From Promethearchaeota archaeon (GTDB taxonomy: Archaea; Asgardarchaeota; Lokiarchaeia; Sigyniarchaeales; SOKP01), in NCBI GenBank assembly GCA_048937405.1, contig JBHLNF010000003.1:128001-192000 (forward strand): 64,000 nucleotides of DNA. The letters run 5' to 3'. The notes beneath the pieces were generated by a model. The model had not been told where the DNA came from. It did no database searches and was given only the letters and a program-made list of their open reading frames with translations. This document shows, piece by piece, positions 1-25,937 of the stretch (position 1 is the stretch's first letter; every line of letters begins with the position of its first letter). Position numbers and translations under genes: made by a program.

Positions 1-3000
1 ATATTTAAAGATGTAGGTCAATTTAATGGAGCCCCTGTCGAGGTGTTCATTAACGGATTTGAATACGGTACAGCAGTTTCAAACGGCACTCATTATGTTG
101 TTTTGTTCGGTCAGGAAAATAATGAGGACACGCTTCTTGCATATTCAAAATCACTGATAAGCGATTACATACATTCAACTATCAATCCGCTATCTCACGT
201 TAGCTGGGAGTTTTCAAATGATGATCTATTTGGTGTTATTCAACATGTGCTTGTCGATCAACCAATCACAATAGTAAATCCACTTACTTATAATGCAACA
301 GCGATAATGCAGTTAGATACTATTTATGATCAAACATTTAGGATGGCAAAATATGTCAGACCTGGTAAAGAGGCATATTATTGCAATGCTACTACAGGTG
401 AGTTATTATATCTTGATCTGGGTTATGATTATATGATTTTACAGGATGGGACGGTTAAATTTCCAGATGGGTCATTTATCTTTGATTTATATGAGAACCA
501 TTCAAGTGAAGTACAGGACGGTTTTATTTATTTCGAGTACAGTGCCTCTGATGTATATGATCAACTAACGCTCTCCAATGCTGAAGGTTTGTTCATTAAT
601 TTTACCATGCCAGATTTATATTACAATCACACCACAATTGATACACTTACTGTTCGATTAAACGACTTTTCTGGAAAGTCATTTGCAAAAATATTTTACG
701 ACATCGATCTTCGAGAATTTTTCCAAGAGGATGTAAAAAGCAAATATGAACAAACGATATTCGGTCTGAGTAAAATGATGACAATACCGTTGTACATCGA
801 TTTCAGAGAATTTATTCTTTCAAACACTGACGCAATGTTTGACATGAGTCTAATAGAATCTATTTCATTTGAAATTGTTGATTCTGCTCGATGGCCAGGA
901 TCCTTCATGAAAACGTACGAAGAAGAAGGATATACCGTGTTGAATCTACCGTATCAGAGAGTTGGAATACAGGATATTAAGTTGTATAATTTAATCAGTG
1001 ATAATGTAGATGATCAAGACGGGTTTGTGACCTCAGAAATAGAAGTACGATGTCCAGAGTATCATGACATATTTGCAACAGACACATTTAATATTGCTAA
1101 GATGAATGTAGAATTTACAGATGTTTCGGTAATATGTGACGGAGTGAATATCAATTACTATAACAGATCAATAGATGTAGAATTTTCTGATAGAATTGAA
1201 TTGTATATGCATTATGATTCAACATCTGGTGTAATTCCGTTGTATGACTTGGTTAATTTACCAATATATTTAGTGAATGCAAGTAATGTAGATCAGGCAT
1301 TCTCCTTTGACAGTCTTCATCATATTACAAAAGAAGATGTGAATGCTCCCGATGGATTTTATTCCGATTATTATTATGCAAAATTTGCCGTTCCGAAAGA
1401 ACTTGGAGAGTATAACTTAACCTTTAATTCACTAGGTACTCCTATGCATAATCTTATCATCGGTGGAATATCAGAGGTCGCAATGTGGAGTTTTGGTGAG
1501 AATGATACGGCATTCGACTTGATCGGTGACAAAGACGGTATGATTGTCGGAGCAACACAGGTCGATGGAAAGGTTGGTCGTGCATTATATTTCGAAAATT
1601 CAAATGATGATCATGTTGAAATACAGCCAGTGTTTGATGATTACCAAGACTATTTCACATTTGCTGCTTGGGTAAATGCAGAAAGTTTATCTACATATCA
1701 TTCATTATTCGGAGAGTATACTGGACAATATGCAAGAAATCACATTTATATCGGTACGAATGGTGAAGTCGTATTTGATCACAACCTACCGGCTGGAGGA
1801 GAAGCGACAAGTATCAACAATTTGATTACAATAGGATCGTGGATACATGTAGCCGTGGTGAAAGATAATGATACTGTGTACTTTTATAAGAACGGCGAGC
1901 AATTTGGTAGCGGTGTATCTCACGCTGAGAAGTATACATCAGGGAACCCCACAATATCAGGATTAGGAGGTAGGTATGACGGGGGGTGGGATTATGGGTT
2001 TGACGGAACACTTGATGACATACGACTTTATAGTAGATCTCTATCTGAAGATCATATAAAGTTCTTGTATCATAATGGCTATGGTAGATCTCAGCGATTA
2101 AATACACTAGTGCAATTTTCAGTAAACGTTACTCAAGAATCATTAAATGAGGAGCCGATCTATCTTGAAAATGATAGATATGAACTTGAATACGGAGAAT
2201 CATTAATACTTAGTGGAGCAGTGTTAGATAACGATATATATATAATAGAGGATGAAGTGCACGAATACAACTATCAGGAAGCATTAGGAGACGGAACCAC
2301 AACTAGCACCACAACTCACACACTTGATATCATCGCACCGTTCGGAGATGACTCATTCATTGATAAAAATGAATTTGCTATCTATTATATATCAGATACA
2401 TTAGAAAAACTTCCGTTGTACGTGAAAATGGATGGAAAGCTATTCATTGATACAGAAATTATATCTATCGAAAAGCTTCCAGAAATAGTGTATGTTAACG
2501 ATAAATATGTCCTTAATATACACTGGGAAACAAATCCAATAACAGGTTGTCATATTAATTATAATACTATGTTGTTGATTTCATATAAAATGATTAGAGG
2601 ACATCCAATTACCCCGATGTCGTACAGCTCTGAAGATGCATACGGACATGATAAGAAAGAAAATTTACATGAGATACCATTTGCTCGATATGATATAATT
2701 ACCGATAGTTGGATAACAAAAGATGACTATACAGAATCATTCTTTATTGATAAACAATTTATTGTAGAAGGAAATGTTACGGTTAATTCTGTGCTTATTG
2801 AAGGTCCGACCTATTTTGATGGTCAAGAGATCAAACTGGGTATTATTGGAATTGATAATGTGTATGTGAATAAGAGTAACGCTGATGTGTATGTACAACT
2901 TGATCCTCAAAACTATACATGGTTTATAGATGCAAGTGGCAGACTTAATGTTACATACTTGAATTTTGAAACTGGTGATGTGTGGTTTGTTGAGTACTGC

Positions 3001-6000
3001 TCTTATTATCCTTTGGAATTATCACACTCCTTGAAAAAATCATCATCTTACTTAACTAGTATTATGATTCATTCGAGTAATGACACTTCTCAATATCATA
3101 CTTTTACAACTAGTGAATATATAAATGCAACAGATGGATATGCTATTTACTTATTAGATCTGTATAACACGGCATTCTCTCTGGGTTTTGATATCGGTGA
3201 TGAAATAGTAGTTAAGTACCACGCCCCATTAACGAGAAAGGTTGATCTTTCATGTCAAGTACTGTTATTATTACAGGATAACAATAGCAATTATAGACCG
3301 ATTGATATGATACAAATTGACAGTTATGGGATGTTTAAATATGATCAACAATTTACCAATGATGGTCCTCTTTCATTACCGTTAAATAGTAAAACACTAG
3401 TGAATTTGAAGCTTGCCTATTTACCGCTACAGGTATATAATACTTCAGCCGGCGAATTAGTGAATATTAGTTATTCAGATCCGACTGTAGGAAGTATTTA
3501 TCCATATAAATCTAGTAGTAAATGGGTAAAAAGTTTTAAAATCATGACGATCCAAGATCAAGTGAAATTAGAGTTCGTCGATTTTGAGTTACAGCCAATA
3601 GTAGTGAACCAAAAATTCATAGAAGAACGTGATTATAAGTTCACCTATAACCCATTATATGCTTTAGAAGAAGGGGAAGAATATACAGCATTAAATCTTG
3701 ATGTAATGACACGAGAGGACTACACCTTTACCTTTAAATTGACAAATTCAGAGGATAAGCCTATTAATAATTCTATAGTATGGTTACATATTGGATTTAT
3801 GCCGAAGAGTGTCTCCGGATTCATTGACGACGGTCTAGAAATAGAGGAATTAGGAGGAATTTCACCGTATTATGAAATTTTAGGCACTGAAATAGGTACA
3901 ACAAAGGGACCCGGAATGGGTCCGAATAATATGTTCGGAAGACCATTAACATATGAAGTTGAATATAAGTCATTGAACAGAAGTGCCTACGGTCCATATA
4001 TATGGACATTTGGTACGACAGATGTATTTGGCAAGGTGTCGTTTGATCTATCGTTTGATAATGAATATTTATCTGACTTTTCTACAATATTTGGAACGGT
4101 CTCGGGAATAAAATCATTAGACGATATTTCACTTTATATAAGAGCATTTACAACAGAGTTCAGATGGCAAGATTTCATCATTCATTCACCCGAGCAGTAT
4201 ATCTGTTCACAAAACGGAATCATCTTTAATTCTAGTAGCAATATTTTACGTGAATATGATCTAATGCAACTCAAGTTCCAAGACAGTACATATGCAGAAG
4301 GGGTTATTGAGTTGCACAAAAAGGATATTGCATTAGGGTGTTCTGATCGTATTTCCTATGATCTTCCCTATACTGATGAGTTTCAAAGTGCCCAACTTGA
4401 AAATCTTCGCTTATTTGTATACGTTACAGAGGCAAATGTAATTGGAGGTAACATCGGCACGACAGTTGAATCATTAGATGGGCTTCATGAGGTACTTGAG
4501 TTGGAACCAACTCCTGTAAATGTACTCGCACAAAATTACAGCTATTATGCTTTACTTCAGATACTCGATCCTGCAGGAAACAATGTAAAGCAAGCCTACT
4601 TGCCAATACAACCAAGCGGTGATGGTGGATATATAGAAATTGCAAATTGGACTATGGAAGAAATTCTAAACACGGCGGGACCTGGTGTTTCAACGATACA
4701 AATTCAAGTTCAAGAAACAGAGTATTATAAGGCTTCTCCTGTAGTACGAGTCCCCCTAGAAATTAGACCCCCCAACTGGCTTCGTTTTGGGGAGAAAAAT
4801 ATGCAGATCGATCTGATTGATCCATTTATCGCCTCTTGGGGTTCTGCATTTGATGGAAGTGGGTTGATGCCATTTGAGAGCAATTATCCGCATCTGATTG
4901 GCACACTGTGGATTGATCCACACTTTGAAAACGGAGAAGAACTTTCTATAGAAGATTATATTGAGATAGGATTGACCTGCACCTCCTTTAATGAATCTGG
5001 AGGGATAAGCGGTGTCACTGATTTACGAGAACCCATCATGTTTCGTCCAGGTAATTATGAAGGATTCTTAACGTTTGATGTGGGATTAGGTCCAGAAGAT
5101 GCATTTTTGATGGGAACCGAGTGCATGCTGAATTTAACATTCGATATTGATTATATTGAACAAGAGGTATATAACGAAAGTAGAGATATCAATATCTATC
5201 TGCTTGATCTCCGAATGGTCAATAATCCATCAGCGAATAACCCAAATATTATCTGGTCACTATATGAAGATAAATTCAAAGATATCGCATTTCCAGTAAA
5301 AAATGAGTTATTAAGTATATCAACAGAAACTGGAATACTTTTATTGGGTGGAATTTCTGGTACAGAAGCATACGGAGTTGAAGAGTACTTCCTCTATGAT
5401 CCAGATCAGGTTACCTATGCAACGGATCCTGAAAATCCACAATTATCATTACTTGGGTTAGATAACGTAGAACCTCTTGCTGTTATAGGCACAAATGGTA
5501 CCGAAACAAATTATATTTTTGTAAAAAACGTTGATTGGCAAGAAGGAACGACTATGACCGAGATCGAATTTCTGGGAAATGATGTTCCAAATAACGATTC
5601 AGAATTCAAGGTGATCTATCAGTATAACTTTGATTTCGGTTCGAACTATTTCGGAAACGTAACACTTGGAGCTTCAAACAATGTTAGTAAGAGTTATATA
5701 GAATTTGATTTAACTGGAGGATTTTTACCAAGTAGTGAAGACAGTAGATCTTCCATGTTTGTAAGGTATTTTGACAACTTTGTTGGTAATAATATTGATA
5801 AAAATTTCAATTTAACCTATACTATTGAAAATGCAGATCTATCGGATTTTGTCATTTATAATGAAGAGGAATTGAACGCTTCATTTACAGGAGTCATAAA
5901 GAAGATTGACAACGGAGCGTTACAAATTGAACTTACTGATATTCCTGCTAATGGTCAAAAATTCAACGTGTCATATGGCATCCGATCTCAGTACGAATTA

Positions 6001-9000
6001 AGCTACGGCTTCCAGAAATTTAATAAGTCTTACAGTGATTCGGTTCGGTTGATTCACAATGATGAAGAGCACCAGGATTCAATATTAGATACTCAGGAAA
6101 TTCCATTGATCACTACCAAATTGAATGAACCTTCCTTATATGTGTCAATGGACCCCTCGGATGAAGAAACTATTCTAGAATTATATAACCTACTTATAGC
6201 CTATAATCCTGAATTAAACTTTACTATAGTACTTGATCCGATAGTTGTAAATCAGATAGAAGCATTTAACAATGATTTTAATACACTTAGTGTCGAGTTT
6301 TATTATGTAAAACATGATATGGGAGTCTATTATTCAGATTATATTGAAATTCCGTTGAATTATAGTGAATTTGTATTAGATCTTGAAGAAGATGGTAGTT
6401 ATCGGATTAATTATAATAAAGATCTGTTTGGACTATATTCTGATTTTGGAGTTTCGTCAATGGATATATATATTTCAATTTCACAGGTGAGCGAGGGATG
6501 TAATTTCATTCCATATGTAATCATTGAAGATTTTGATTATCTCAGTGATGATCATTTTATAGAAATGTATGATAGAATACCAAGAGACAGTAATAATAAT
6601 ATAGATGTAAAGGCAGTCATTGGAACTCCTCATTATTTCCAAATATTTACCGAGCCTTTACGAACAAGTACCTTGTATAATGTATCATCTCCTTTCGATC
6701 TTTTAGAAAACTCTATAGTAACTGTCGGATTGACTGATCTACCACATTCTAGCTTAGTCTCACTGAATAATTATGAGTTTTCTTATTTAGGATCATCAAC
6801 ACCAATTGTTGTTAATGATGATGATTTCAACATGATTACTAACCTTGGATTATTTACTAATACTTATAATATTGAAGACTCTATTGTTCAGGATGGATTT
6901 GTCGATCTTTATTATGGTTCAGGAACAGAAGTGGACGGGTCAAAAGAGTATGATATTAAGATGAACATGTGGCCGTTGAACGATGTTATTGACTATACAT
7001 CAAATGTTTCTAATCAAATTATTGAATCATGGGAAAACTCATTGAACTTTACTTCCCAATTCTTAACTACTGATGAAATCACAGTATCAGGAACGGTTCT
7101 ATATCATCAGATATTTAACTTGGTTTCGGATGATACAGTAATCGGGGAAAATGAAATAAATGCCCTATTTGACGGTTATGATGTACCACATGCGATGCTT
7201 GGATTACGCCTTCCAGATGATATACAAATTGCATATGTCGGAACGGTTGGCAAACCATATGATTATTACCTATCTGTACAAGGTTTCCCTATCGGAAATC
7301 ATAAAACGAGCCACTGTATAAACTTGACAACTGGAGTTATCGACTCATTTGCATACAGTGAGAGTGTGATGATAGAAGATGATCACTATTCTATTGAATA
7401 TTTAGATAATGGAAGTAAGTATATCTTAATCTATGTAAGTAATTCTTCATTATATGCTGAAAATGATGAAATAATTGTAGATTATTGGGCATATCATACA
7501 TTTACAGAAGGAATCGATTACGAGATTCATGAAGATCCTGATGATCCCTATATGTCCGCGATCACTTGGAACCTTGAATATAATAATGTAAATGACTTTA
7601 AGATGCACCCTGATTTATCTACACAAACATCCTATACCATTGAATTCTCTGCTTTAGAATGGAAAGATGCAGGTGATAATTACGTATTACAACATAGTGA
7701 TGAATTTATTTTTCAACCATTAACCAAGACAAATATCTCTCTGTTATATGAAAAAGGAGATACCGAAAAAATGTTTAACATCCTCTATTATGTGCCCTTA
7801 GAGCGGTTCCCAGCACCCGACTTATTCACTTCTGTTGCTGTGAAGATATGGGATGGGAATGATATAAATTCATTGCAACTTTATTCTAATTTTAGAGCTG
7901 AATATATCCTTTCAGATACAGATTGCAACTGGATGTACTATCTAAATTTTACTGAAGTACAAAAAGATATTTCGATTGAACATCAAGGATTTGAAATATA
8001 CCCAGATACATCGGTATTAATAGAGGTGCAATTCAATTCTACTGTCATAAAATATCCATTGACATATACCCCATTTAACTACGATTATATAGAATCAACT
8101 CACGAAGTATACAACATTAACATCACAGTGGGAGAACTCGGCACCTATACCTCAAATGTGGATTCATTCTTTGATAAATATGTTATTCAGATCAAAGATA
8201 ACTATATCTACTTAAATGATACTGAAATAGATCCTCATACTAAGATCACCGTTAAGTATCGCCATAAATTACAGCCAGGGTTGCTTGATCGTAAGCATTT
8301 AGTAACTGTAACATATCCGTGGACAAATACTTTTACCACAATCGCAAGTGATATCACTTCTGTGGAAGACCTAGACACCGCCACATCATATAGAGAGAAA
8401 TACAGGAAATTATCGGGAAGCTCAATTATCGCACCCTTTGATTACTCCTTATCACTAGATGATATTTATACCCTTTATTTGAGTTATCGGTTGAATCAAC
8501 GGGACATCATTGAAGAAACATTTACATTTGAACCAGCAAAAGTGTGTAAAGATGGTACATATAATTATACCTATATGGATCACGGTATTGATAAGTATAT
8601 GGATGATGTCGTCATAGATGGGCAGCATTCAATCACTATCTATTATTATGATGAATGGGGACGTATCCAAACAGTAGAGGAAGAATGCTATACTGTAGAT
8701 TCGGTCAATAATATAATAACAATGCTACCAAGCGGTAGTAAGAATCCAATTCTCCAGAATGCTGTCCCTGAATTTTACGTATCATATCTTCCCGAAGGAA
8801 ATGATAAGAAATTCGAGAATTACGAATTTACCTACGACCCAAATAGAGAATTAAAAGATACCATTGAGGTGAGTAATTGGGAAGTCATCAATGGAAAAAG
8901 ATTAGATACAATTCCTATCTTTGAAGCACCGTATTTCATGGATGAGAGTGTAAGTACTCATGAAAATATAGTATGTTATGCTACACAATTAATGTCGTAT

Positions 9001-15000: not shown

Positions 15001-18000
15001 TATAATACACTACAACTGGAATATAAACCAACTGCACAAACAGTCACTAGTAATACATACCAATTAGAAAAAGCAAGACAAGGATTACTAATTCAAAAGA
15101 AATTATATGATACAGGTAAAACTGGAAGAATCGAAGAAACGACTCTAGATGTTGAAGAGGCTTATCGTGTATCACAACAAGTTGTTGATGTAGAAGTTAT
15201 AATTGATGATGTTCAAATGAATGTATTTACGCCACAATTATACTCAAGAGAAGCAATATATTTATATTTATGGAGTCAAACAAGAGATCCTACTATAGTC
15301 TCTCTTCCTAGAAGGGCCAGTATTGAAGCCTTAAAACAAAATATTATCCGTAAGTTTAATCTTAATTTAGCTACCAGGACAGATTCACTCGATTCAATAA
15401 CCGTCTCCAATGATTTTGTAGTAGTTGATTTTGACATTAATCGAGTATATGATATAGATAATTTTGCGACTGTGGGGGAAATAATTGATGCCCATCCAAA
15501 TTTCAGAATTATGAGGACTATAAATCTTGAACCAAATACCCCTATTACAACTGTACGCGATTTTAGAGAAATTGAATATTATTCTTCAACACAAAGAAGT
15601 GGTACATATTTAAGATTTGGAGAAATTAATCCAGATGATAACACACTTTCCCCTATAGAATCATTACCAGAAACCCAAGCGGGAAGAAGAACTGCAGACG
15701 TACTTGAACATAGAGGTGGAGGAAATGAATTTATAAGACGCTTAATTAGAAAGATCACTGGCGGTATAAGAGGAATTTTTAAAGGTACTGAAACAACCCA
15801 GAGAGTTCTTAATCAACCCGAACTACCTCTATTCGTAACTGAATTACAACGGGCGTCTGATGATATCCTGTATTTTAACCCTAATACCCCAAATACTGAT
15901 CGTCAAGTTACTATTCGACAACAACTCGATTTTGTAAGAGATTTCATTAGAGATGAACTTGTTATAGTATTACGAGAAAGATTAGAGCTACTTGGAGTTG
16001 CATCTGAGGTACACTCGAATGATATGATTGAAAAAGTCACAGAAATTATACTTCAGATATATGATGAATTTTACATACATCAATACGAAGCACATCAACA
16101 ACTTCTTGGAAGTGATCAGAGAAATCTTAACCTACTTGATAAAGAAGTACGGTTAAATTGGGAACGTGTAATACAGAATAACTTACTAGCTTATATAATT
16201 GACTACTTCCCAGCAGAAAATGGTGTTTTAATCAGGAATTTTAATTCAAGAGATCAAAATTTGCACAGGAATATTTTTGTATCGGTTTTGGATAAATTAG
16301 AAGATATTAATGATAGGAAGGAAATCATTGATCGACGACGTTTATTTTGTATGTCAGTTATAGAGAGTATGCTGATTTCAAACGATATTGAAAGAATAAA
16401 TAACGATCCAGCTGGAGCAGAAATAACTCGGTTCCTTGGACCTACGGCTAGAGGGAGGAATAGAGCGTTTTCTGAGCTTTTTTTCGCTTTATTTGGAAAA
16501 TTCAGTTCAGATACCGAGATCAACACAGGTGCTTTACAGGAAACTCATGATTTCATGTATTTGTTACCAAAAATTATTCTAGGGTTGTTTTTCGAACATG
16601 TGGGAGGAAATATACAAGATATTAACTATGAATATTCCTATAACAAATTTAGTTATGCTGATGCAACCTCTATTTTCAACTTAGTTAGGGAATTATTTAA
16701 CGGAGGTAGTCTTCTTCATGCTGAAGGAGATATACGAGCGGAAGATGTGTTTTCAGATCATATGTTTACATTGATTAATTCACACTTTAAACATCAGATT
16801 ATTAATATAATCTCTAAGAATCTTCAAGATGGAGGTCATGCTAGAACTCGAATGGATCTCATTGAAAGTGACTTATGGAAGGCTCTTAATTCAATTAAAA
16901 ATCTCGCTGGGACAGATAAATTAGAAATGGATAAAATATTAGCAAAAATAGTAATTGATATGCAGGCACTTAGAGGAATGGACAGTACAGGGAGAGAGAA
17001 TACTGAATTCAGTACAGTAGAATCCCTTTTAAGACACAGATTTAATGATGTTTCTGCTAAATCTATAATCAGATCAACAGAGTGGAGAAATCAAATTAAT
17101 ACTAATAGTAAGTCAGATATTTCTGAGATATATTCACAAAGATGGATACATTCACGAATATTAGGAATCGCTAGTAATATTATATATGAGGGTGGGATAT
17201 TTCATGCCGACCGTTATGCTGCTATATATGATCTGCTAACCAGCACTCGAGAAATTATAAGTCAAACTGGCACTCTTAATACTAATCCATGGCGAGAAAG
17301 ACGTGGAGGTACCTTGTATAGAGTTAGACCATTGGGAACCTGGACACCAGGCACAATTTATCAAAATAATCAAATTGAAGTACTTATTGAAATATCACCA
17401 ACCAACAAATTCGAAATAACTATCAACTTCCTTGAAGATGGTGGGAATGTTGGGAAAAATCTTGAACGTGGGGATACTTTCCTACAACAATCTGGGTATT
17501 GGATTTCATCTTGTCTTAATTTCGTTGAAAATATATTGGTTACTCCAACTAGTATTGCTAATTATCTTAGATTATTAAGAAATGATTTTGAAGATCGTTT
17601 AGGGACATCATATCTTCATTGGGATGAAACTGGGGAATATACAACAGGATTAAATCTGGTTGCTGGGTGGAATAGTGGAGTGTTAATTGAGGGTAATTTG
17701 AATATAAACAATATACCTAATAGTATAGATACAAGTAATGCTGAATTTGATCCCATTAGTGGTAATCTTATTGGATCTTACATTCCAATGTCCCGAGAAT
17801 TAGATGACAATACTATCCAATATGGCTTATTGCGTGTAGAACAGGATAGTGATGGAGTCTACTGGCATATTCATCCCTCAAATACTCTTGTGGGTACAGA
17901 TTGGGCTCCAATTTTGATAGAGAGAGAAGATGGATATATTCCGTTTTTTGTTCAGGTTGAATTAAATGTAAGAGAAAGAAAAGTCACTTATTTAGGATTT

Positions 18001-20304
18001 AGTAACAATCGATTAGATAGTTCTGGTTTCTCTTTTGATAGCGATTGGTTCATGTCAACAGATCCAGAAATACAAGCGGCATTAGAAGAAGCTATGTCAA
18101 GTGGAGGGTTTACAGAATATACATTATATTTTTCATGGCATGGAAATGAAATAACTGGATGGTCGATACATACGAATATAGAGAATATGTATTTAGCTTA
18201 TGGTCATTATAGAGACTCTTATAATAGATTTAAAAATGTAAGAAGAAGTAGGCAAGATCCCTATCAGGATCCCGGATTATTTGAGCTTAAAAGATTAATT
18301 GAGTATGAAAGATATCTACGATATGGCGAAATAGCTCGAGTAGGTGTACAAGCGGAAATAAATAAGGATGGAACTATATATTTTACTGATTCAACACTCC
18401 AAAAGGAAAACACGAAGTTGATATTTAAAATGGCAGAAGATCAGTTAATCACAGCCACAACAACAGAGATTTCCGAAATAAGGAACTATTTCTCATTGAT
18501 AAATGCTTATTATTTTGGAGCTTCTGATCCACCAATAAATATTATACATGCAGATGACGTTGACATTTATTTAAGCGCACTTGAACAATCAGCAAAAAAG
18601 ATCCTTGGTGATACAAAAACAGCGGAATTGATGAATTCCATATTTTTCAATGAAATGAGGGACGGTCAATTACGATTTAACAACAAACAGATGCTGAAGA
18701 ATTGGGCAAAGGGTATGTTGCTGTTATTACAAAACTATTATAATGATCCAAATAGAGAAGTAATTCTACGTCTTGAAGGATTACTTAACCACTTTGAATT
18801 GAATAGTTTAACATTCACGGATAGTAATGAACTCTTTCAAGAGTCAGATAAAAACACTTTTCAAAAATTACAAACATTGCTTTGGACAATATTTGGACCA
18901 TATACTTACTTAAAGATGCTAACAGGTGGAATAACATTTAAAGATGGCAAAACACGATATTGGAATTTACCATTTTATGATTTTCTGCTTGCGATTAATC
19001 ATAACCGTTTAGGATTTATTCATCGTGGAACTTCGAGGTTGGAGAATCAACTAGTATTAAAACGTGGAAATCCAGGAATGGATTCAACTACTTTTACATA
19101 TCAAGATTATTTGACCTGGATTTTCGAATTTTATACGATACATCCATCCATTTGTATTAAAATTGCAGATAATACTGGTAAAATTATCGAGAATGAACAT
19201 TGGATAACTCCAATCCCTACTTTACCAATGGTAATGATATCTGAAGAACTTTCAAGGATCCAACATGATGTTAGCATATTTCAAGAAAGTGCTGATCCCA
19301 CAATAAGAATACAGAGTATTACGACACTATCGCAGAATTTTATACTTTTGGATTCTGTTATATACAGAATAATTACTGATCTCACTTATGATACTGATCA
19401 AAATAATCGTATTTCTACTCTTAAAAGTGGTATTTTTAATCCATCGCTTTATGTTGATAGATATAAAAGTGGTGATTATTGGGAAATAGATAAAGATATT
19501 ATATTTAAAGGACCAAAAATATATCATAATGGATTTAATTATTTTGTCCTTGGACAACAAGATAAAACGGGGATGTCATATTGCCACTATACAGCTATTA
19601 TGAATGGGTTAGTAACCTCATTAGTACGAAATGGAGGGGCTATTCGTTGGCTAGAAAAACTATACATTGATAATGCTTTTATCGATGGTATTCCTATCTT
19701 AGCAGAGCATTTTCCAACAAAAACTGAATTTATTAATGCATTACACAATGAGAAAACCAGACAAGAAGTTTGGGATTTAATAATTGAATATATAACTCTT
19801 TATAACAAGCCACCTATAGAAAAATTTAATTTAGATGCTTTTGGTATGTCTCTTAACTTCTTATTTCAAATAAATGAACGATGGGATGATTATAATCTAC
19901 AAGACTTTCCAGATTATGCTCAATATATTCAACTTGGAAAAGGATGGGTAATAAGACCTACAAATGAATTATCACCGATAATAGAAAAAAAATTAATGGA
20001 ACAAGGTATAAAAATAATTAAAAATGAAAAAGATTTAATCTCTGAGATAAAAGAGAGGATAGATAACCAAGAGATTTGGTATATTGATACTTTAGGATTT
20101 AGAATTGGAAAACCAAATGATGGAACTCCAAATGATCAACATGCATTAACTATATTTCATTATCGTGAAGAAGAAGACGGAGTTTGGTTTTTAATTGGAG
20201 ATTCAGATGCACCTTTTCTTCATAATCAAATTCAAGGTCAAGGTGTTTGGGTGAAATCTCATGTAATTTGGAAAACTTTTAATAAAGGTAATACTATAAA
20301 TTAG
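1..20304 (+). CDS. Giant (>6,700 aa) surface/secreted multidomain protein, 5'-truncated by the window; adhesin-like stalk, LamG, Ca-binding loops, hydrophobic hairpins, C-terminal papain-like peptidase
   Basis: Frame 1 is open from base 1 (IFKDVGQFNGAPVE) into the 43..20304 ORF, so GTG43 is probably not the true start. The N-terminal ~3,700 aa are acidic, Tyr/Asn-rich and dense in N-x-S/T sequons; hydrophobic segments at ~11350, ~12790-12945, ~14100 and ~14660-14770. Confidence 0.9.
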   Translation: MFKDVGQFNGAPVEVFINGFEYGTAVSNGTHYVVLFGQENNEDTLLAYSKSLISDYIHSTINPLSHVSWEFSNDDLFGVIQHVLVDQPITIVNPLTYNATAIMQLDTIYDQTFRMAKYVRPGKEAYYCNATTGELLYLDLGYDYMILQDGTVKFPDGSFIFDLYENHSSEVQDGFIYFEYSASDVYDQLTLSNAEGLFINFTMPDLYYNHTTIDTLTVRLNDFSGKSFAKIFYDIDLREFFQEDVKSKYEQTIFGLSKMMTIPLYIDFREFILSNTDAMFDMSLIESISFEIVDSARWPGSFMKTYEEEGYTVLNLPYQRVGIQDIKLYNLISDNVDDQDGFVTSEIEVRCPEYHDIFATDTFNIAKMNVEFTDVSVICDGVNINYYNRSIDVEFSDRIELYMHYDSTSGVIPLYDLVNLPIYLVNASNVDQAFSFDSLHHITKEDVNAPDGFYSDYYYAKFAVPKELGEYNLTFNSLGTPMHNLIIGGISEVAMWSFGENDTAFDLIGDKDGMIVGATQVDGKVGRALYFENSNDDHVEIQPVFDDYQDYFTFAAWVNAESLSTYHSLFGEYTGQYARNHIYIGTNGEVVFDHNLPAGGEATSINNLITIGSWIHVAVVKDNDTVYFYKNGEQFGSGVSHAEKYTSGNPTISGLGGRYDGGWDYGFDGTLDDIRLYSRSLSEDHIKFLYHNGYGRSQRLNTLVQFSVNVTQESLNEEPIYLENDRYELEYGESLILSGAVLDNDIYIIEDEVHEYNYQEALGDGTTTSTTTHTLDIIAPFGDDSFIDKNEFAIYYISDTLEKLPLYVKMDGKLFIDTEIISIEKLPEIVYVNDKYVLNIHWETNPITGCHINYNTMLLISYKMIRGHPITPMSYSSEDAYGHDKKENLHEIPFARYDIITDSWITKDDYTESFFIDKQFIVEGNVTVNSVLIEGPTYFDGQEIKLGIIGIDNVYVNKSNADVYVQLDPQNYTWFIDASGRLNVTYLNFETGDVWFVEYCSYYPLELSHSLKKSSSYLTSIMIHSSNDTSQYHTFTTSEYINATDGYAIYLLDLYNTAFSLGFDIGDEIVVKYHAPLTRKVDLSCQVLLLLQDNNSNYRPIDMIQIDSYGMFKYDQQFTNDGPLSLPLNSKTLVNLKLAYLPLQVYNTSAGELVNISYSDPTVGSIYPYKSSSKWVKSFKIMTIQDQVKLEFVDFELQPIVVNQKFIEERDYKFTYNPLYALEEGEEYTALNLDVMTREDYTFTFKLTNSEDKPINNSIVWLHIGFMPKSVSGFIDDGLEIEELGGISPYYEILGTEIGTTKGPGMGPNNMFGRPLTYEVEYKSLNRSAYGPYIWTFGTTDVFGKVSFDLSFDNEYLSDFSTIFGTVSGIKSLDDISLYIRAFTTEFRWQDFIIHSPEQYICSQNGIIFNSSSNILREYDLMQLKFQDSTYAEGVIELHKKDIALGCSDRISYDLPYTDEFQSAQLENLRLFVYVTEANVIGGNIGTTVESLDGLHEVLELEPTPVNVLAQNYSYYALLQILDPAGNNVKQAYLPIQPSGDGGYIEIANWTMEEILNTAGPGVSTIQIQVQETEYYKASPVVRVPLEIRPPNWLRFGEKNMQIDLIDPFIASWGSAFDGSGLMPFESNYPHLIGTLWIDPHFENGEELSIEDYIEIGLTCTSFNESGGISGVTDLREPIMFRPGNYEGFLTFDVGLGPEDAFLMGTECMLNLTFDIDYIEQEVYNESRDINIYLLDLRMVNNPSANNPNIIWSLYEDKFKDIAFPVKNELLSISTETGILLLGGISGTEAYGVEEYFLYDPDQVTYATDPENPQLSLLGLDNVEPLAVIGTNGTETNYIFVKNVDWQEGTTMTEIEFLGNDVPNNDSEFKVIYQYNFDFGSNYFGNVTLGASNNVSKSYIEFDLTGGFLPSSEDSRSSMFVRYFDNFVGNNIDKNFNLTYTIENADLSDFVIYNEEELNASFTGVIKKIDNGALQIELTDIPANGQKFNVSYGIRSQYELSYGFQKFNKSYSDSVRLIHNDEEHQDSILDTQEIPLITTKLNEPSLYVSMDPSDEETILELYNLLIAYNPELNFTIVLDPIVVNQIEAFNNDFNTLSVEFYYVKHDMGVYYSDYIEIPLNYSEFVLDLEEDGSYRINYNKDLFGLYSDFGVSSMDIYISISQVSEGCNFIPYVIIEDFDYLSDDHFIEMYDRIPRDSNNNIDVKAVIGTPHYFQIFTEPLRTSTLYNVSSPFDLLENSIVTVGLTDLPHSSLVSLNNYEFSYLGSSTPIVVNDDDFNMITNLGLFTNTYNIEDSIVQDGFVDLYYGSGTEVDGSKEYDIKMNMWPLNDVIDYTSNVSNQIIESWENSLNFTSQFLTTDEITVSGTVLYHQIFNLVSDDTVIGENEINALFDGYDVPHAMLGLRLPDDIQIAYVGTVGKPYDYYLSVQGFPIGNHKTSHCINLTTGVIDSFAYSESVMIEDDHYSIEYLDNGSKYILIYVSNSSLYAENDEIIVDYWAYHTFTEGIDYEIHEDPDDPYMSAITWNLEYNNVNDFKMHPDLSTQTSYTIEFSALEWKDAGDNYVLQHSDEFIFQPLTKTNISLLYEKGDTEKMFNILYYVPLERFPAPDLFTSVAVKIWDGNDINSLQLYSNFRAEYILSDTDCNWMYYLNFTEVQKDISIEHQGFEIYPDTSVLIEVQFNSTVIKYPLTYTPFNYDYIESTHEVYNINITVGELGTYTSNVDSFFDKYVIQIKDNYIYLNDTEIDPHTKITVKYRHKLQPGLLDRKHLVTVTYPWTNTFTTIASDITSVEDLDTATSYREKYRKLSGSSIIAPFDYSLSLDDIYTLYLSYRLNQRDIIEETFTFEPAKVCKDGTYNYTYMDHGIDKYMDDVVIDGQHSITIYYYDEWGRIQTVEEECYTVDSVNNIITMLPSGSKNPILQNAVPEFYVSYLPEGNDKKFENYEFTYDPNRELKDTIEVSNWEVINGKRLDTIPIFEAPYFMDESVSTHENIVCYATQLMSYINTTTKLRFNLNDELFGYDTDLLADIQSGQITNLHIRTGISNYESIESLTVRLFNTTQQIESDQVFTIEELLKSNFVINIVLPSYHHNLQYIEFDATFTERGEYSSDNDKGITRVEYIEWDEQLTTVGSNGYKVMEYVLGYDLIENTNIYLYNDVLQYLKLPDGISFEYTLKVDAFENIMYVLEIPDVYVNPDDSSENRTFADGDMLILRYSSPPKKEIGIAVGTMYFEKEQYEMSIPIAEVMLINASNTFSYDEFISPYYYNIPLEVTPFDTEFSNSFKAVAIELDISTLAAYNVSNAIEFSNIIFSVPDPSYELTIDQVVITRKDHGRSDHEYVEQNIWRYTELEMFESDVDPSDDVYNPTFTETPIFYNDGGDKWLKYLALYDGAATYYAGLPEGQDQDQYQLHWSQQYSNFTWNPSFDKFKEIFGMQYELPMSIEPNSSLYLAYCTNTSWMEPIYLDYSNIDLNSIAVVYEGDTFSLENRYYYSELDRNLTERLYYDYEVDQFYSDSFTVYNTVSTYTHEFDLGNFTLENDFINVSVYSIKGIYANFTDVTIENDTINYEVYFDKAANNITIIDKISGDGVLNQFDLITVILNFSYGPISTSSSIELSHMFNNSYLSDPTASFYDLLSISFEYVDDLEFVLFNEDYRTITTSNTLFTSIDFTRSSELGIDKKLNGYDTSVFLNFKIFYDPYNVIYEADLDADGNIDYLQEIDINKDGITDIRKFGIQDGEYPEDIIWHTIIQNYKTHESYVDKQKQSKATKWFDLNDDSYSEIDWGDPGIWAMISLAIAGIALSGGATAALVIPPIAGEIMVSRVDYWAKKSITHEMTQHYDVNTVYQSVIVDENKDGYADTEVTYEHIDTVVNYESIDIETTIIAAKPYGWTTYLLDYVERSFKEFFVGEIEDNVFNEELTEEILSDKSLAVQKYGSTGETLFNTFGKVSKNTTVLYREERIRETITITDWEQGKIKETRIYTNDFDDHITNYETFTIKDLYSGNTQVVELETHRIPDEVSIEKKHIDDITWENDKIPEQFDTKITILEDGTTERKNINEKQLTIIIPNRFSLYNDIYKGKYNKDLVKNDTFTITGVVIKPIDGQVYYTSDIDLYKAGMAQTQGFYLYYDSDENGFYETVYVLDEDPTNDGSYIVIAIGYNYDGSHEFSPYNQKTVRTYVEKDDELARKPSFKIGFRRYSFSRIMRDDNLFLSDNDGLEAKDMIFEIYRLTSYKGSNPEFFYEVKQREYSRTTNIFDKSYWSDVAEQVFMSTAAGTISVVVGAAVFGWITGATLGFGVAAGKVAQELASMLTYFAVYSIMSKYFMDVKEWKSRHQERAVTFYLEGSEINKPKYLNDRTKYDDIDEDSQAAAVKGHPGGYYTLVRGGQLGSEYLAEAVVSPKNSRRTNEGLINYYTYGAWTNDPFVYVGLNYDEQNLDYLLLTSELYSYNDEEYYSYRVGPGFVSIQDGKEYNEYKYNTLGYLEKAIAEETNGALNAILPTCVGGRPEYLFIDKNSDLYQLVLPQSHLYQSLVVNPNVYDNNNFANGILDVDIDPSGIKGINPYEMTVIEQLLYSAKIPLHNFNYEIVSTVLYIRDKNGNPKADVELTQEVDYLIDEGSLYLLAPIYELLARDSKFEEYMNARASGYYFSISIEFKRIIPDDSDEDHKIALQQATSYIIMEYFNQYEFATTTARMTAELGYTVRLTEVSTALSVVAMYLSKGLTKGLEEKFLAKSTLTASQTVSKALTVKNLLLTMLKESLSEVIEETIWDAYIEQWVKNYIEETGGTAQMEFWLSSILTSLRETAFGAGDIYRGIRQEVQLQTQIKAFSQLDPTLQNFMSELRLQNPGISDKQLRIQYRADFAQLLAEEQQKQTQNNNQKAQNKRSYKEVLRKIPTALLKGIMGAMFIFNLDAYVKTFIGVLGTSVTLTPIKNYMTKQHQKRINPGLSLDEKHPVNDIDLNKPASLIFDLEGRQKLMTDRDLVLLSYSAKLLDPKAMVDRQFDKSYNTLQLEYKPTAQTVTSNTYQLEKARQGLLIQKKLYDTGKTGRIEETTLDVEEAYRVSQQVVDVEVIIDDVQMNVFTPQLYSREAIYLYLWSQTRDPTIVSLPRRASIEALKQNIIRKFNLNLATRTDSLDSITVSNDFVVVDFDINRVYDIDNFATVGEIIDAHPNFRIMRTINLEPNTPITTVRDFREIEYYSSTQRSGTYLRFGEINPDDNTLSPIESLPETQAGRRTADVLEHRGGGNEFIRRLIRKITGGIRGIFKGTETTQRVLNQPELPLFVTELQRASDDILYFNPNTPNTDRQVTIRQQLDFVRDFIRDELVIVLRERLELLGVASEVHSNDMIEKVTEIILQIYDEFYIHQYEAHQQLLGSDQRNLNLLDKEVRLNWERVIQNNLLAYIIDYFPAENGVLIRNFNSRDQNLHRNIFVSVLDKLEDINDRKEIIDRRRLFCMSVIESMLISNDIERINNDPAGAEITRFLGPTARGRNRAFSELFFALFGKFSSDTEINTGALQETHDFMYLLPKIILGLFFEHVGGNIQDINYEYSYNKFSYADATSIFNLVRELFNGGSLLHAEGDIRAEDVFSDHMFTLINSHFKHQIINIISKNLQDGGHARTRMDLIESDLWKALNSIKNLAGTDKLEMDKILAKIVIDMQALRGMDSTGRENTEFSTVESLLRHRFNDVSAKSIIRSTEWRNQINTNSKSDISEIYSQRWIHSRILGIASNIIYEGGIFHADRYAAIYDLLTSTREIISQTGTLNTNPWRERRGGTLYRVRPLGTWTPGTIYQNNQIEVLIEISPTNKFEITINFLEDGGNVGKNLERGDTFLQQSGYWISSCLNFVENILVTPTSIANYLRLLRNDFEDRLGTSYLHWDETGEYTTGLNLVAGWNSGVLIEGNLNINNIPNSIDTSNAEFDPISGNLIGSYIPMSRELDDNTIQYGLLRVEQDSDGVYWHIHPSNTLVGTDWAPILIEREDGYIPFFVQVELNVRERKVTYLGFSNNRLDSSGFSFDSDWFMSTDPEIQAALEEAMSSGGFTEYTLYFSWHGNEITGWSIHTNIENMYLAYGHYRDSYNRFKNVRRSRQDPYQDPGLFELKRLIEYERYLRYGEIARVGVQAEINKDGTIYFTDSTLQKENTKLIFKMAEDQLITATTTEISEIRNYFSLINAYYFGASDPPINIIHADDVDIYLSALEQSAKKILGDTKTAELMNSIFFNEMRDGQLRFNNKQMLKNWAKGMLLLLQNYYNDPNREVILRLEGLLNHFELNSLTFTDSNELFQESDKNTFQKLQTLLWTIFGPYTYLKMLTGGITFKDGKTRYWNLPFYDFLLAINHNRLGFIHRGTSRLENQLVLKRGNPGMDSTTFTYQDYLTWIFEFYTIHPSICIKIADNTGKIIENEHWITPIPTLPMVMISEELSRIQHDVSIFQESADPTIRIQSITTLSQNFILLDSVIYRIITDLTYDTDQNNRISTLKSGIFNPSLYVDRYKSGDYWEIDKDIIFKGPKIYHNGFNYFVLGQQDKTGMSYCHYTAIMNGLVTSLVRNGGAIRWLEKLYIDNAFIDGIPILAEHFPTKTEFINALHNEKTRQEVWDLIIEYITLYNKPPIEKFNLDAFGMSLNFLFQINERWDDYNLQDFPDYAQYIQLGKGWVIRPTNELSPIIEKKLMEQGIKIIKNEKDLISEIKERIDNQEIWYIDTLGFRIGKPNDGTPNDQHALTIFHYREEEDGVWFLIGDSDAPFLHNQIQGQGVWVKSHVIWKTFNKGNTIN
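1474..2080 (+). other. LamG / concanavalin-A-like lectin domain within the giant protein
   Basis: Typical motifs: 'VAMWSF', 'GKVGRALYF', 'FTFAAWVN', 'WIHVAVV...FYKNG', 'FDGTLDDIRLYSRSLSEDHIKFLY'. Confidence 0.9.
19531..20304 (+). other. C-terminal papain-fold (peptidase C39-like) cysteine protease domain of the giant protein
   Basis: Q-Q-x7-C at a helix start ('GQQDKTGMSYCHYTAIMNGL'), then 'HALTIFHY' and 'FLIGDSD', matching the Q/C/H/D order of papain-like peptidases. Confidence 0.6.
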
Positions 20305-20364
20305 ATTTTGTAATATTTTTAAATTAATAAATTATTAAATAGAGATTGATATAGTAAAAAAGAA

Positions 20365-21222
20365 ATGCTATTTGTAATTTTCAACATATTATCAAGAGAA
20401 ATTTACTTCAAATCATATTTTGAAAGTCATTACATAGAAGATAATATATCAAAAATTATTAAGATGTTTAACAATCGAGTATATTTAAAAAATGAGGAAA
20501 AATACCAATTAGCTTTTAAAATTAGGGAAAGTGTTGCTTTTGGAGGAATAAGAGCCTATAATGGTGGTAGCTACAACGGTCGTGATATTATTCCATGCAA
20601 ACAAATAAATCTACAGGAAATATTAAATTTTATACATGAGTTATCAGAAATTATTACTGAAGAAGAAATTAATCTCTTAACTACAAATCAATTTAAATTG
20701 ACAAAAGAAATAATTTTACAAAGATTAAATATTAAAAATATTCATAATAAATCTAAAATATTAATTGTTGGAGGGGGAGGTGCAGGGGTAAGTTCCATAA
20801 TGTTTATGAATTACGGTCTTACATTAACAAATAATCTTGGAACAATAATTTATCATGTAACAACAAATATAAATGTGAAGAATGAAAAACTCATGTTTTT
20901 TTTTACTCCATATAGATCTGATTTATATCATCATCAAATTAGTCTTTTTCCTGCATTTTCAAGTATTATTTATGTTGAAGATAGTACAAGAAAAGAAGTT
21001 TTTAATGAATATAATTACATTTTAAAAAAAATAAAAGAAGAAAAGAAAAGGAAAAAAGAAAAACGATTTTTAATTATTGCAAATAAACAAGATTTACCAG
21101 GAGCAATGGAGCCAGAGAAAATCGAAGAAATTACAGGGATAACAACAGTCGGCTTTTCTGCCATTGATCCTGATGCTCCTAAACATTTAGAAAAAATAAT
21201 TTCAGATTTTTTGAAAAAATAG
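20365..21222 (+). CDS. Arf-like small-GTPase-fold protein with N-terminal extension (possibly longin-like); degenerate P-loop
   Basis: 'KILIVGGGGAGVSS' (G1, Lys->Val), 'IIYVEDST', G4 'IIANKQDLPGAM', G5 'FSAI'; no DxxG G3 motif. Confidence 0.75.
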   Translation: MLFVIFNILSREIYFKSYFESHYIEDNISKIIKMFNNRVYLKNEEKYQLAFKIRESVAFGGIRAYNGGSYNGRDIIPCKQINLQEILNFIHELSEIITEEEINLLTTNQFKLTKEIILQRLNIKNIHNKSKILIVGGGGAGVSSIMFMNYGLTLTNNLGTIIYHVTTNINVKNEKLMFFFTPYRSDLYHHQISLFPAFSSIIYVEDSTRKEVFNEYNYILKKIKEEKKRKKEKRFLIIANKQDLPGAMEPEKIEEITGITTVGFSAIDPDAPKHLEKIISDFLKK

Positions 21223-21413
21223 ACACTTTTTATAAATTTTTATTTTATGTATTTTTATGTATTTTTAAATATTCTTGATTACTATTCAAACAAAAATTGC
21301 AATAATTAAAATTCTTTATAATCAGTCTAATGAGTGATTAAATCATAACGACAATAAACTATCCTCCCAAGAAAATATTAGAAAAGAAGGATTATGTATA
21401 CATTATACTATGG

Positions 21414-22289
21414 ATGTTGTACAATAATGAAGGATGTAGATGGTTAGATTTTCGTCAAGAACCGCTTGAAATTCCTACAGTTAGTTTATCTGAACATTTA
21501 AATAAGTTAACACGTAAAGGATTAGTAGAAAAATATACTAAAGGGTATTATAAGATAACACATAAAGGGAAAGAACGTTTTAATGAAGAGAAATTTGATT
21601 TAAATTATTATAATGAATATTATAATTATAGACTTTTGATGACCAAGGTTTTAAGTCCTGATCGAATCTTTGATATTGAGAGTAATGGAGATTCTAAGAC
21701 TGAAAAGATATTAAAATTTTTAGTATTAGGAGAAGCGGGAGTAGGAGTAAGAACCCTATTAAACTCAATATATCTTAAACTTGGTTTCACAGATTATGAT
21801 TATGATCATTATAATTCTTCAGTACATACAGAAATACCAAAAGATTGGGAAGGTTATGATATCGATATTCATGGTTTTGAATTTGAATTTCATTATACGG
21901 AGTATTTAGAAATCAATGAAGATATATACTTACTTGATTATTGGGATTGTGAGAAGGATTATCGTTTTCATAAAATATTTCAGATGTTTAAAGAGAAGGT
22001 TCTTGTGTTGTTTATTTTTGATTTATCACGACCAGGAACTTTTGAATATCATATAAAGTACAATTCATGTCCTTGGTGGAATTTAAGTAAGCCCTCGATT
22101 TTATTAGTTGGAAACAAACTAGACTTAATCAAGGACACAACTACAATTGATCGGAAAAAATATAAGGATTTTGTTGAAAAAGAGGGTTTGAGGAAGTATA
22201 TAGAAATATCAATGAACAATTTTAATGGGTTAATTGAAGAAATATCTAAATTAATTCAAGAGAAAATAGGTAAATCCTTTAAATTTTAG
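21414..22289 (+). CDS. Winged-HTH plus Rab/Ras-like small-GTPase-fold fusion; degenerate P-loop
   Basis: N-terminal wHTH ('SLSEHLNKLTRKGLVEK...YKITHKG'); 'LKFLVLGEAGVGVRT' (Lys->Val), 'YWDCE', 'FIFDLSRPGTF', 'LVGNKLDL', 'EISM'. The frame extends upstream to ATG21330 but with TAA at 21339-21341. Confidence 0.75.
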   Translation: MLYNNEGCRWLDFRQEPLEIPTVSLSEHLNKLTRKGLVEKYTKGYYKITHKGKERFNEEKFDLNYYNEYYNYRLLMTKVLSPDRIFDIESNGDSKTEKILKFLVLGEAGVGVRTLLNSIYLKLGFTDYDYDHYNSSVHTEIPKDWEGYDIDIHGFEFEFHYTEYLEINEDIYLLDYWDCEKDYRFHKIFQMFKEKVLVLFIFDLSRPGTFEYHIKYNSCPWWNLSKPSILLVGNKLDLIKDTTTIDRKKYKDFVEKEGLRKYIEISMNNFNGLIEEISKLIQEKIGKSFKF

Positions 22290-24013: not shown

Positions 24014-24031
24014 AGGAGGAATGAAAATATA

Positions 24032-25867: not shown

Positions 25868-25937
25868 CTTTAACTTTTTAAATATAAATTTAGCAAATAA
25901 AAAATAAAAAAAAAACAGAAAATAGAGGTTTTATACA

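Follow-up and report, generated by a model that had tools for sequence, protein, structure and literature searches.

The DNA analysed here is a window of 64,000 nucleotides from a lokiarchaeial Promethearchaeota archaeon (assembly GCA_048937405.1, contig JBHLNF010000003.1, forward-strand positions 128,001 to 192,000; G000:C13:128001-192000), which opens inside a giant gene and continues with two genes for proteins related to small GTPases, P0002 and P0003. The giant open reading frame (ORF; G000:C13:86445-148304) consists of 20,619 codons, with no N and no internal stop. Frame 1 of the window, closed by a stop codon at 20302-20304, supplies the last third of this gene, residue 1 of the window being residue 13,853 of the giant protein, and two 20-kb stretches upstream of the window are open throughout in the same register. 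A preliminary description of the DNA, made from the letters and their ORFs, had noted a frame of more than 6,700 amino acids (aa); the frame is indeed open for 6,767 codons, and the complete ORF is three times larger than was seen at that time.

A hydropathy scan of the giant protein reveals a Lys-rich head of ~445 aa followed by five to six strong membrane helices at aa 446-680 and, after this anchor, by ~17,000 aa of acidic, Lys-poor ectodomain. The head is cytoplasmic and the anchor polytopic; both lie upstream of the window, where the preliminary description had proposed to look for a signal peptide and secretion genes. Towards the C-terminus the ectodomain is succeeded by a conserved module of ~1,200 aa with hydrophobic hairpins and finally by an orphan tail (Table 1). 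Pfam, run on all 20,619 aa in tiles, returned only several LamG domains, CBM96, DUF2341, Big_13 and a sialidase-like carbohydrate-binding module. The surface stalk with LamG that had been described before is confirmed by a LamG domain in the window and by further lectin-type modules upstream. Contigs of an independent study are identical to the locus wherever they overlap it, and since they bridge both the module/tail junction and the boundary between the giant's stop codon and P0002, neither join is an assembly artefact.

Table 1. Features of the giant gene and its neighbours (positions in nucleotides of the window; aa numbers refer to the giant protein unless stated otherwise).
Feature	Position	Strand	Details
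Giant gene, 3′ part	1..20304	+	last 6,767 codons and stop of the 20,619-codon gene; open frame in register
LamG / concanavalin-like lectin domain	1600..2061	+	Pfam PF13385 (Laminin_G_3), window aa 534-687, E 2e-20
Module start, four D-x-[DN]-x-[DN]-G Ca-loop-like motifs	11104..12390	+	motifs at nt 11104, 11146, 11539 and 12373
First Gly/Ala-rich hydrophobic stretch	11347..11457	+	aa 17,635-17,671; Kyte-Doolittle peak 1.92
Second hydrophobic segment	12781..12957	+	aa 18,113-18,171; Kyte-Doolittle peak 1.92; kept in 7/7 aligned members
Conserved alpha/beta domain	13080..13960	+	AlphaFold model residues 120-412, pLDDT ~85-94
Third, weaker hydrophobic helix	14077..14151	+	aa 18,545-18,569; part of a 69-residue helix; family sequon-free zone begins approximately here
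Gln/Asn-rich helical linker	14578..14643	+	read directly off the sequence
Last conserved hydrophobic segment, weaker; then junction	14677..14778	+	aa 18,745-18,778; family homology ends just past the segment
Variable tail, 1,843 aa, orphan	14779..20301	+	0 N-x-S/T; no Pfam/NCBIfam family
Candidate C39-like (papain-clan) cysteine peptidase domain	19408..20301	+	Gln-Gln 19555-19560, Cys 19582-19584, His 20140-20142, Asp 20200-20202 and 20206-20208
P0002, 285-aa pseudo-Arf with N-terminal 125-aa extension	20365..21222	+	Pfam Arf PF00025, E 1.4e-12, 47.9 bits (cut-off 22.3)
P0003, winged-helix and pseudo-Ras	21414..22289	+	Pfam Ras E 1.4e-7; weak HTH_45 match

When the module (window aa 3700-4900) was used as a query, seven of the 40 relatives and a second gene of the same genome gave matches, with an identity of 30-39% to same-genus giants. 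Two same-genus genes are collinear with the giant from the membrane anchor to aa ~18,800, and their products have 12,745 aa in one case and no fewer than 11,803 aa in the other. In blastp comparisons similarity ends at giant aa 18,660-18,813 in all six homologues, after which 760-1,800 unrelated residues follow. A family scan with one genome per GTDB species yielded 32 related loci, all from metagenome-assembled genomes (MAGs) of Promethearchaeota except for one 11.5-kb contig. This contig (L043, JAAKFN010000045.1) carries a typical family member, is binned under a Candidatus Anoxychlamydiales MAG and is probably mis-binned Promethearchaeota DNA. The tails of the family are multi-domain and range from 540 to 1,850 aa.

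Across 351 pairs of family members, mean identity is 30% over the last 600 residues of the module compared with 2% in the tails. Three loci of a single MAG (L066, L067 and L070) have near-identical modules (86-92%), tails that are unrelated or at most 10% identical, and three unrelated first downstream genes, whilst L039 and L063 share modules of 91% identity and a tail likeness confined to the first ~120 aa. Because near-identity between paralogues stops abruptly, and does so at different points in different pairs, recombination is indicated, by which the family exchanges its tails together with the neighbouring gene. The preliminary description had asked whether the C-termini and the downstream gene vary on a conserved stalk; across the 32 loci this is the pattern. 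At most of them the next gene starts 20-125 nt past the stop or converges on the giant-type gene, and at many the gene beside the tail encodes a leucine-rich-repeat (LRR) protein. The related tails of L041, L060, L042 and L059 are accompanied by homologous small partners of 126-186 aa, and the tails of L054 and L063, which are 55% identical, by partners that are 65% identical. Thus the first downstream gene co-varies with tail type, as the immunity gene of a polymorphic toxin system does.

The tails also stand apart in their content of N-glycosylation sequons (N-x-S/T, i.e. N-[^P]-[ST], with N-P-[ST] as the non-acceptor form). The giant ectodomain contains 203 sequons where 179 are expected and the cytoplasmic head 5 where 4.5 are expected. 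The last 2,683 aa of the protein (after aa 17,936) contain none compared with 22.9 expected, the reverse motif occurring 19 times, and for the 1,819 aa of tail from aa 18,801 the figures are 0 and 16.7. In 29 family tails, together 31,266 aa, we counted 2 sequons against an expectation of 228. Both are of the N-[^P]-S type (131 expected), whilst N-[^P]-T (97.5 expected) and N-x-C (5.4 expected) are absent altogether. The non-acceptor N-P-[ST] is enriched, with 19 occurrences compared with 7.2 expected. Control motifs in the same tails gave 242 observed to 261.5 expected for D-x-S/T, 141 to 136.6 for Q-x-S/T and 210 to 235.8 for adjacent N-[ST], and the reverse-motif control was at expectation.

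The depletion is graded along the protein, the family ratio of observed to expected sequons (O/E) falling from 1.39 in the ectodomain through 0.58 in the first and 0.35 in the second half of the module to 0.01 in the tail. Those remaining in the second half of the module sit at recurrent positions, and, one exception aside, the bare zone of the family sets in at the third hydrophobic helix, ~250 residues short of the junction. Depletion is not seen in the partner genes (~48 sequons observed, 57 expected, O/E ~0.85), and P0002 holds 2 compared with 2.4 expected. Among the ORFs of the genome with at least 400 aa the median O/E is 0.94, and none with at least 8 sequons expected holds one or fewer; the longest sequon-free stretch genome-wide is that of the giant, followed by that of its paralogue on contig C28. 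The genome encodes an STT3/AglB transferase, and avoidance specific to the acceptor form requires that a segment come into contact with this enzyme. Since acceptor sequons are purged, N-P-S/T is enriched and STT3 is present, we infer export of the tails in a bare state, that is, probably threading to the outside of the cell, where they must stay unglycosylated. Export of the tip-bearing protein, a feature of polymorphic toxin systems, is thus indicated, indirectly, by the N-terminal anchor, the sequon-rich ectodomain, the sequon avoidance of the tail and the transferase.

Several further loci were recorded in the course of this survey. The paralogue in the same genome (G000:C28:270451-278751, minus strand; locus L028) is a short family member with an open frame of 2,767 aa and 22% identity to giant aa 16,653-18,683; no N-terminal membrane anchor was found within this frame. 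It has a sequon-free tail of its own and a 220-aa gene 52 nt downstream, and two intact Rab-like GTPase genes lie 3-5 kb beyond the latter. At L053:13700-18508 (NJBI01000008.1, Loki_b31) the gene ends 35 aa past the junction and a 1,602-aa ORF, free of sequons (0 observed, 10.3 expected), begins 18 nt later, which may represent a split gene, a frameshift or a separately encoded tail. In L040 (SOKP01000267.1, Promethearchaeota E44_bin85) the part of the stalk within the locus is sequon-poor, with 4 observed and 29.8 expected, in contrast to the stalks of other members, which are ~1.4-fold enriched. Lastly, a 1,458-aa protein encoded elsewhere in the genome of the giant (G000:C11:26411-30784, minus strand) has an N-terminal membrane or signal segment and LamG-like repeats resembling the stalk of the giant. 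Its first 1,265 aa hold no sequon compared with 12.8 expected, the third longest such stretch in the genome.

The module that precedes the tail bears out several features of the preliminary description. The Ca-binding loops reported there are present at the level of motifs, of which the third has an invariant Asp and Gly in a seven-member alignment. The several Gly/Ala-rich hydrophobic hairpins resolve into two strong stretches and two weaker ones, and the Gln-rich coiled coil placed at ~14580-14650 coincides with a Gln-rich stretch. The first hydrophobic stretch is shorter or missing in some family members (alignment columns 85-122). The second was modelled by AlphaFold as a hairpin with helices at model residues 2-45 and 51-92 (~42 residues each, pLDDT 68-88). 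Recurrent sequon positions of family members fall in the region of the alpha/beta domain, between 470 and 250 residues ahead of the junction, and because of them the domain is probably located outside the cell. The complete model (701 aa, built from 32 sequences) has a mean pLDDT of 72 and a pTM of 0.65, with further helices following the 69-residue helix. Foldseek against the PDB gave no match at E ≤ 0.001, a wide PDB structure search (VIA) only generic membrane helical hairpins with Z of at most 7.2, and a search of the ESM Atlas TM values of at most 0.22 when normalised by query length. A model of 701 aa limits such searches by its length, and the absence of structural relatives therefore does not make the fold a new one.

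The tail itself is an orphan. Pfam and NCBIfam scans gave no family match for the last ~1,840 aa, in agreement with the ~1,800 aa of unassigned domains seen before. Searching with the last 1,200 aa produced five weak matches among 1.84 billion representative proteins, and none of 40 relatives, of which 24 belong to the same genus, has a match to the last 388 aa. Among other family tails, the match to that of the giant is limited to 110 aa of a single tail. P0005, a protein of 787 aa, is a weak relative of tail aa ~6,132-6,356, but it is found on 5-kb contigs whose context is uninformative. Another member's tail (L042:7299-10154) shows a weak, below cut-off match to a ThiS/ubiquitin-like domain at tail aa 142-194 (E 0.0016).

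At the very end of the tail lies a candidate C39-like cysteine peptidase. Three homologues were found: P0006, a 404-aa protein from a JGI metagenome with 26% identity, which is the only full homologue among the 1.84 billion proteins, and the fragments P0004 and P0008. The His and both Asp residues are kept in all three, and the Gln and Cys in P0006, the sole homologue to cover them. In a protein language model the nearest neighbours of the domain are Peptidase_C39_2 clusters (score 0.83-0.87), and P0008 has a weak, sub-threshold match to DUF3335 (E 7.6e-4). An hhalign comparison with six C39_2 sequences from related genomes placed His and Asp in register at a probability of 12.9% and an E of 0.0022. 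The AlphaFold model of the last 298 aa, based on a four-row alignment, is too poor to judge the fold (mean pLDDT 48.8), and Foldseek found nothing significant for it, papain-family entries lying within the noise (E 1.2-1.7) and not being counted. A word-based single-sequence search for the C-terminal domain found no further homologues, a profile search only P0006, P0008 and two spurious VOC proteins, and phmmer and hmmsearch against PDB sequences only noise. Of the papain-like C-terminus proposed earlier, then, the ordered and conserved Gln, Cys, His and Asp stand, whilst the papain fold is tentative, given the low hhalign probability and the poor model.

P0002, the small co-oriented gene that had been noted downstream, starts 60 nt past the stop of the giant. 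By its family model (PF00025) it has the fold of a small GTPase. Its G1 motif reads GGGGAGVSS (GVGKTT in same-genus relatives) and its G3 region FFTPY (WDFAGQ in those relatives), whilst NKQD is retained. Owing to the loss of the G1 Lys and of the G3 DxxG, P0002 is classed from its motifs as a pseudo-GTPase. The preliminary description spoke of pseudo-GTPases in the plural, and rightly so, for P0002 and P0003 match the Arf and Ras families yet both have Val at the position of the P-loop Lys and lack DxxG, with NKxD kept. A search of 40 relatives with P0002 returned nothing but generic Arf-like domains that are catalytically intact; across 398 other genomes of the phylum the N-terminal part of P0002 gave a single hit, marginal at E 8.8e-4, and no convincing one.

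A full-length homologue of P0002 was found at one other, unrelated locus. In L037 the gene for P0006 precedes a 158-aa gene, after which a 265-aa protein is encoded that matches P0002 with its N-terminal extension included (34% identity, E 3e-34) and that shows the same loss of the G1 Lys and DxxG. Hence two rare families, the C39-like domain and the pseudo-Arf, occur together at both places where either is known, which makes P0002 a candidate cognate partner of the last domain of the tail. Searches of 398 phylum genomes and of the 1.84 billion proteins gave no further convincing relative of either family. Co-folding of the last 298 aa with P0002 scored 0.00 and is uninformative in either direction. 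We note that a 404-aa LRR protein (L037:12717-13931, minus strand) converges on the pseudo-Arf gene beside P0006, and that LRR proteins are the commonest neighbours of family tails.

For P0003 a tie to the giant system is doubtful. Each half of the protein falls into a family that occurs in 24 of the 24 same-genus genomes searched, and it does not match the L037 gene. The earlier suggestion that partner or immunity proteins derive from small GTPases may thus hold for P0002, which recurs beside the C39-like domain; P0003 is genus-wide and not tail-specific. The first 58 aa of P0003 (window 21414-21590) form a winged-helix segment that is multi-copy in the genus, with up to 66% identity and often as a tandem pair, and that stands at the N-terminus of proteins of 630-1,000 aa in each of the same-genus genomes covered. 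Directly after the pseudo-GTPase genes, on the same strand, follow the two subunits of ATP-citrate lyase and an isocitrate/isopropylmalate dehydrogenase (window 22712-27131). The giant gene lies among genes of core carbon metabolism, which are unrelated to it, and no obvious mobile island is seen.

Taken together, these data lead us to favour, by a modest degree, the reading that the giant is a polymorphic, probably contact-dependent effector-delivery protein of the lokiarchaeial cell, built from new parts. The whole chain after the anchor would be threaded outward, and the tail would meet the glycosylation enzyme and be kept bare as it must later cross or enter another membrane. We prefer membrane passage as the reason for its bareness because the hairpin module and the cytoplasmic partners are then accounted for as well. 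The lectin stalk would bind a neighbouring cell, and the hairpin module would insert into the membrane of that cell and pass the tail through. Inside the recipient the C39-like peptidase of the tail could act on a substrate or free the tail at a Gly-Gly site. The cytoplasmic pseudo-Arf P0002 would be the cognate binder that protects sister cells, i.e. an immunity protein. As this presumed protector has the shape of a small GTPase, the peptidase may recognise Arf-like GTPases, comparable to the activity of MCF in eukaryotic cells. The proposal in full, in which an Asgard contact system pushes a bare tail through a self-inserted helical module into neighbours, the tail peptidase recognises Arf-type GTPases and a dead Arf decoy neutralises it, is speculative and on present evidence unlikely. 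The Asgard contact-dependent effector system of the preliminary description is upheld as far as the fixed stalk and module, the varying tails and neighbours, the sequon purge and the recurrence of peptidase with pseudo-Arf are concerned; a recognised toxin domain was not found, and P0003 is not tied to it.

A number of observations weigh against effector delivery. None of the 23 tails scanned with Pfam and NCBIfam has a recognised toxin domain, and the C39-like domain is not called by Pfam, its assignment depending on motifs and weak scores. The pairing of peptidase and pseudo-Arf is known from two loci only, and at the second of these the peptidase is a free-standing gene of 404 aa separated from its companion by the 158-aa gene. 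In the PDB, wide PDB and ESM Atlas searches the module model showed no structural likeness to known translocation domains. A distant relationship (21-27% identity over stretches exceeding 1,000 aa) links some of the long tails; tail variation is therefore in part fast divergence rather than swapping. Moreover, the giant gene has no close relative, its best module identity being ~32-38%, so that tail swapping is established for the family and not for the giant locus itself. No orphan tail cassette was found in the genome, where the junction-proximal 251 aa match only the giant and its C28 paralogue. Finally, the bare state alone does not prove translocation into a target, because the secreted LamG protein on contig C11 is also free of sequons.

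Three other explanations deserve consideration. Asgard archaea live in close physical partnerships, and the giant could be a device for recognising kin or partners, as the self-recognition locus IdsD/IdsE does in Proteus. The giant would bridge to a neighbouring cell, and the bare tail would be inserted into it or delivered to it and read there by the variable cytoplasmic partner as a signal of identity or attachment. Such a device would account for the same polymorphism, co-variation and sequon purge, and it agrees with the lack of a recognisable toxin domain in the 23 tails and with the LRR partners, which are typical binding scaffolds. There is an archaeal parallel in the hypervariable Ig-protein module of Thermococcales, for which recognition of self and non-self is among the proposed roles (PMC8416519). 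However, the conserved, catalytic-looking Cys, His and Asp at the end of the tail are easier to read as an enzyme, and a tag that served identity alone would hardly need tails of 600-1,850 aa. We regard this explanation as unlikely, though one to be kept in mind.

Alternatively, the protein might serve adhesion as a receptor with an anchor at either end, in which case the hydrophobic segments near the C-terminus would be ordinary membrane spans and the tail a signalling platform in the cytoplasm of its own cell, similar to integrins or ROCO proteins. The raised Lys/Arg content and Cys-poor composition of the tail fit this, as do partners with neutral sequon content and without signal peptides, and LRR with GTPase is a known signalling pairing. 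A cytoplasmic segment should, however, carry sequons at chance level, like the head of the giant and the genome at large, whereas the count in the tails and the enrichment of N-P-S/T point to selection against the acceptor site; nor are signalling tails expected to swap between paralogues of 90% identity. We therefore consider the two-ended receptor improbable, and the simpler idea that the tail is cytoplasmic and its sequons faded for that reason was rejected, as chance predicts ~23 sequons here and ~228 in the family. The tail could also be an extracellular working tip that is never delivered, acting on the envelope of a neighbour or on polymers, for instance as a peptidase working at the surface, with glycans spoiling its fold and the downstream genes being unrelated. 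A secreted LamG protein equally bare over 1,265 aa and a stalk full of carbohydrate-binding modules are in line with such a tip. Yet it leaves unexplained the conserved hairpin module just before the tail, the way in which cytoplasmic partner genes change along with the type of tail, and the recurring pairing of the peptidase with a cytoplasmic pseudo-Arf, and we hold it to be very improbable. Effector delivery across a membrane remains our preferred reading.

The preliminary description had compared the giant with CdiA, MARTX and the large clostridial toxins. In CdiA/CdiB/CdiI, a type V secretion system for contact-dependent inhibition, the toxic tip is countered by a cytoplasmic immunity protein encoded just downstream, which shields sister cells from the tips they receive. 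The giant is like CdiA in its layout, with a cell-bound filament that could reach a neighbour, a junction-marked tip and a gene just downstream. It differs in that Pfam detects no TPS domain, FHA repeats or VENN/pre-toxin motif in all 20,619 aa, in lacking a CdiB partner, in being 4-6 times longer and in the absence of orphan cassettes from the genome. The resemblance to MARTX toxins lies in the hydrophobic or Gly-rich regions flanking a string of effector domains that is thought to pass a self-made pore, and, if the C39-like candidate and its tie to Arf hold, in MCF, a papain-type cysteine peptidase effector with activity tied to Arf and Rab small GTPases, which needs host ARF and degrades Rab GTPases (PMC6731672, PMC11194500). 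However, the Pfam scans of the giant revealed no RTX-type repeats, no inositol-phosphate (InsP6)-dependent cysteine peptidase domain (CPD; C80) and no glucosyltransferase; the giant is not released from the cell, and the GTPase-like protein at its locus is encoded by the producer and is catalytically dead. Thus the order of parts is alike, as had been claimed, and membership of the CdiA, MARTX or clostridial toxin systems is rejected, none of their defining domains having been detected. The Ig-domain module of Thermococcales is likewise an archaeal locus with a large surface protein, variable downstream genes and a reading in terms of conflict or self and non-self (PMC8416519), but it belongs to another protein family and architecture, with no giant stalk and no reported swappable, sequon-free tail.

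Polymorphic toxin systems in general provide the closest frame. At the level of the family we find their long conserved delivery part with C-terminal regions replaced by recombination at a sharp junction, and their neighbouring gene that changes with the tip; a C39-related peptidase is a described tip type, Tox-PL-C39 domains occurring in polymorphic toxins (PMC3482391). In contrast, the giant family has no detectable toxin, immunity, pre-toxin, RHS, FilH or secretion-signal domains, its tails are long and multi-domain, and as partners it has LRR proteins, small proteins or a pseudo-GTPase. Moreover, its host is an archaeon with a single membrane, in which the giant is held by an N-terminal membrane domain of its own, and orphan tip/immunity cassettes, which are frequent though not obligatory in polymorphic toxin systems, were not found in its genome. 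A survey of 2012 found classical polymorphic toxin systems in few archaea, with toxin domains grouped within bacterial radiations (PMC3482391), and published accounts treat such toxins as uncommon among archaea and as derived from bacteria (PMC3482391; PMC6393860).

Earlier work has counted giant Asgard genes but offered no explanation (10.1101/2023.11.21.568195; PMC8813620); a 2023 survey listed few archaeal proteins of more than 10,000 aa, mostly from Asgard archaea, and did not explain them (10.1101/2023.11.21.568195). In the literature we found no description of the giant family, of sequon-purged tails or of the pseudo-GTPase partner. With 20,619 residues the protein is a very large archaeal one, which now has an anatomy, a family and a testable job. 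The purge of sequons, together with the Pro in the remaining N-x-S/T sites, offers a culture-free evolutionary read-out of topology and handling, one that by itself, given the bare LamG protein of contig C11, is no proof of delivery into another cell. Should the speculative proposal in full be true, purging of acceptor sites would be a general sequence test for exported yet bare proteins in N-glycosylating archaea. No bacterial counterpart was found for the parts of the giant family, which, if the reading holds, would represent a contact system of indigenous origin in the nearest relatives that eukaryotes are known to have. The pseudo-Arf partner would tie such a system to the eukaryote-like GTPases of Asgard archaea; were the decoy proposal true as well, the small-GTPase machinery of these archaea would have been targeted by injected effectors, and defended by decoys, before eukaryotes existed.

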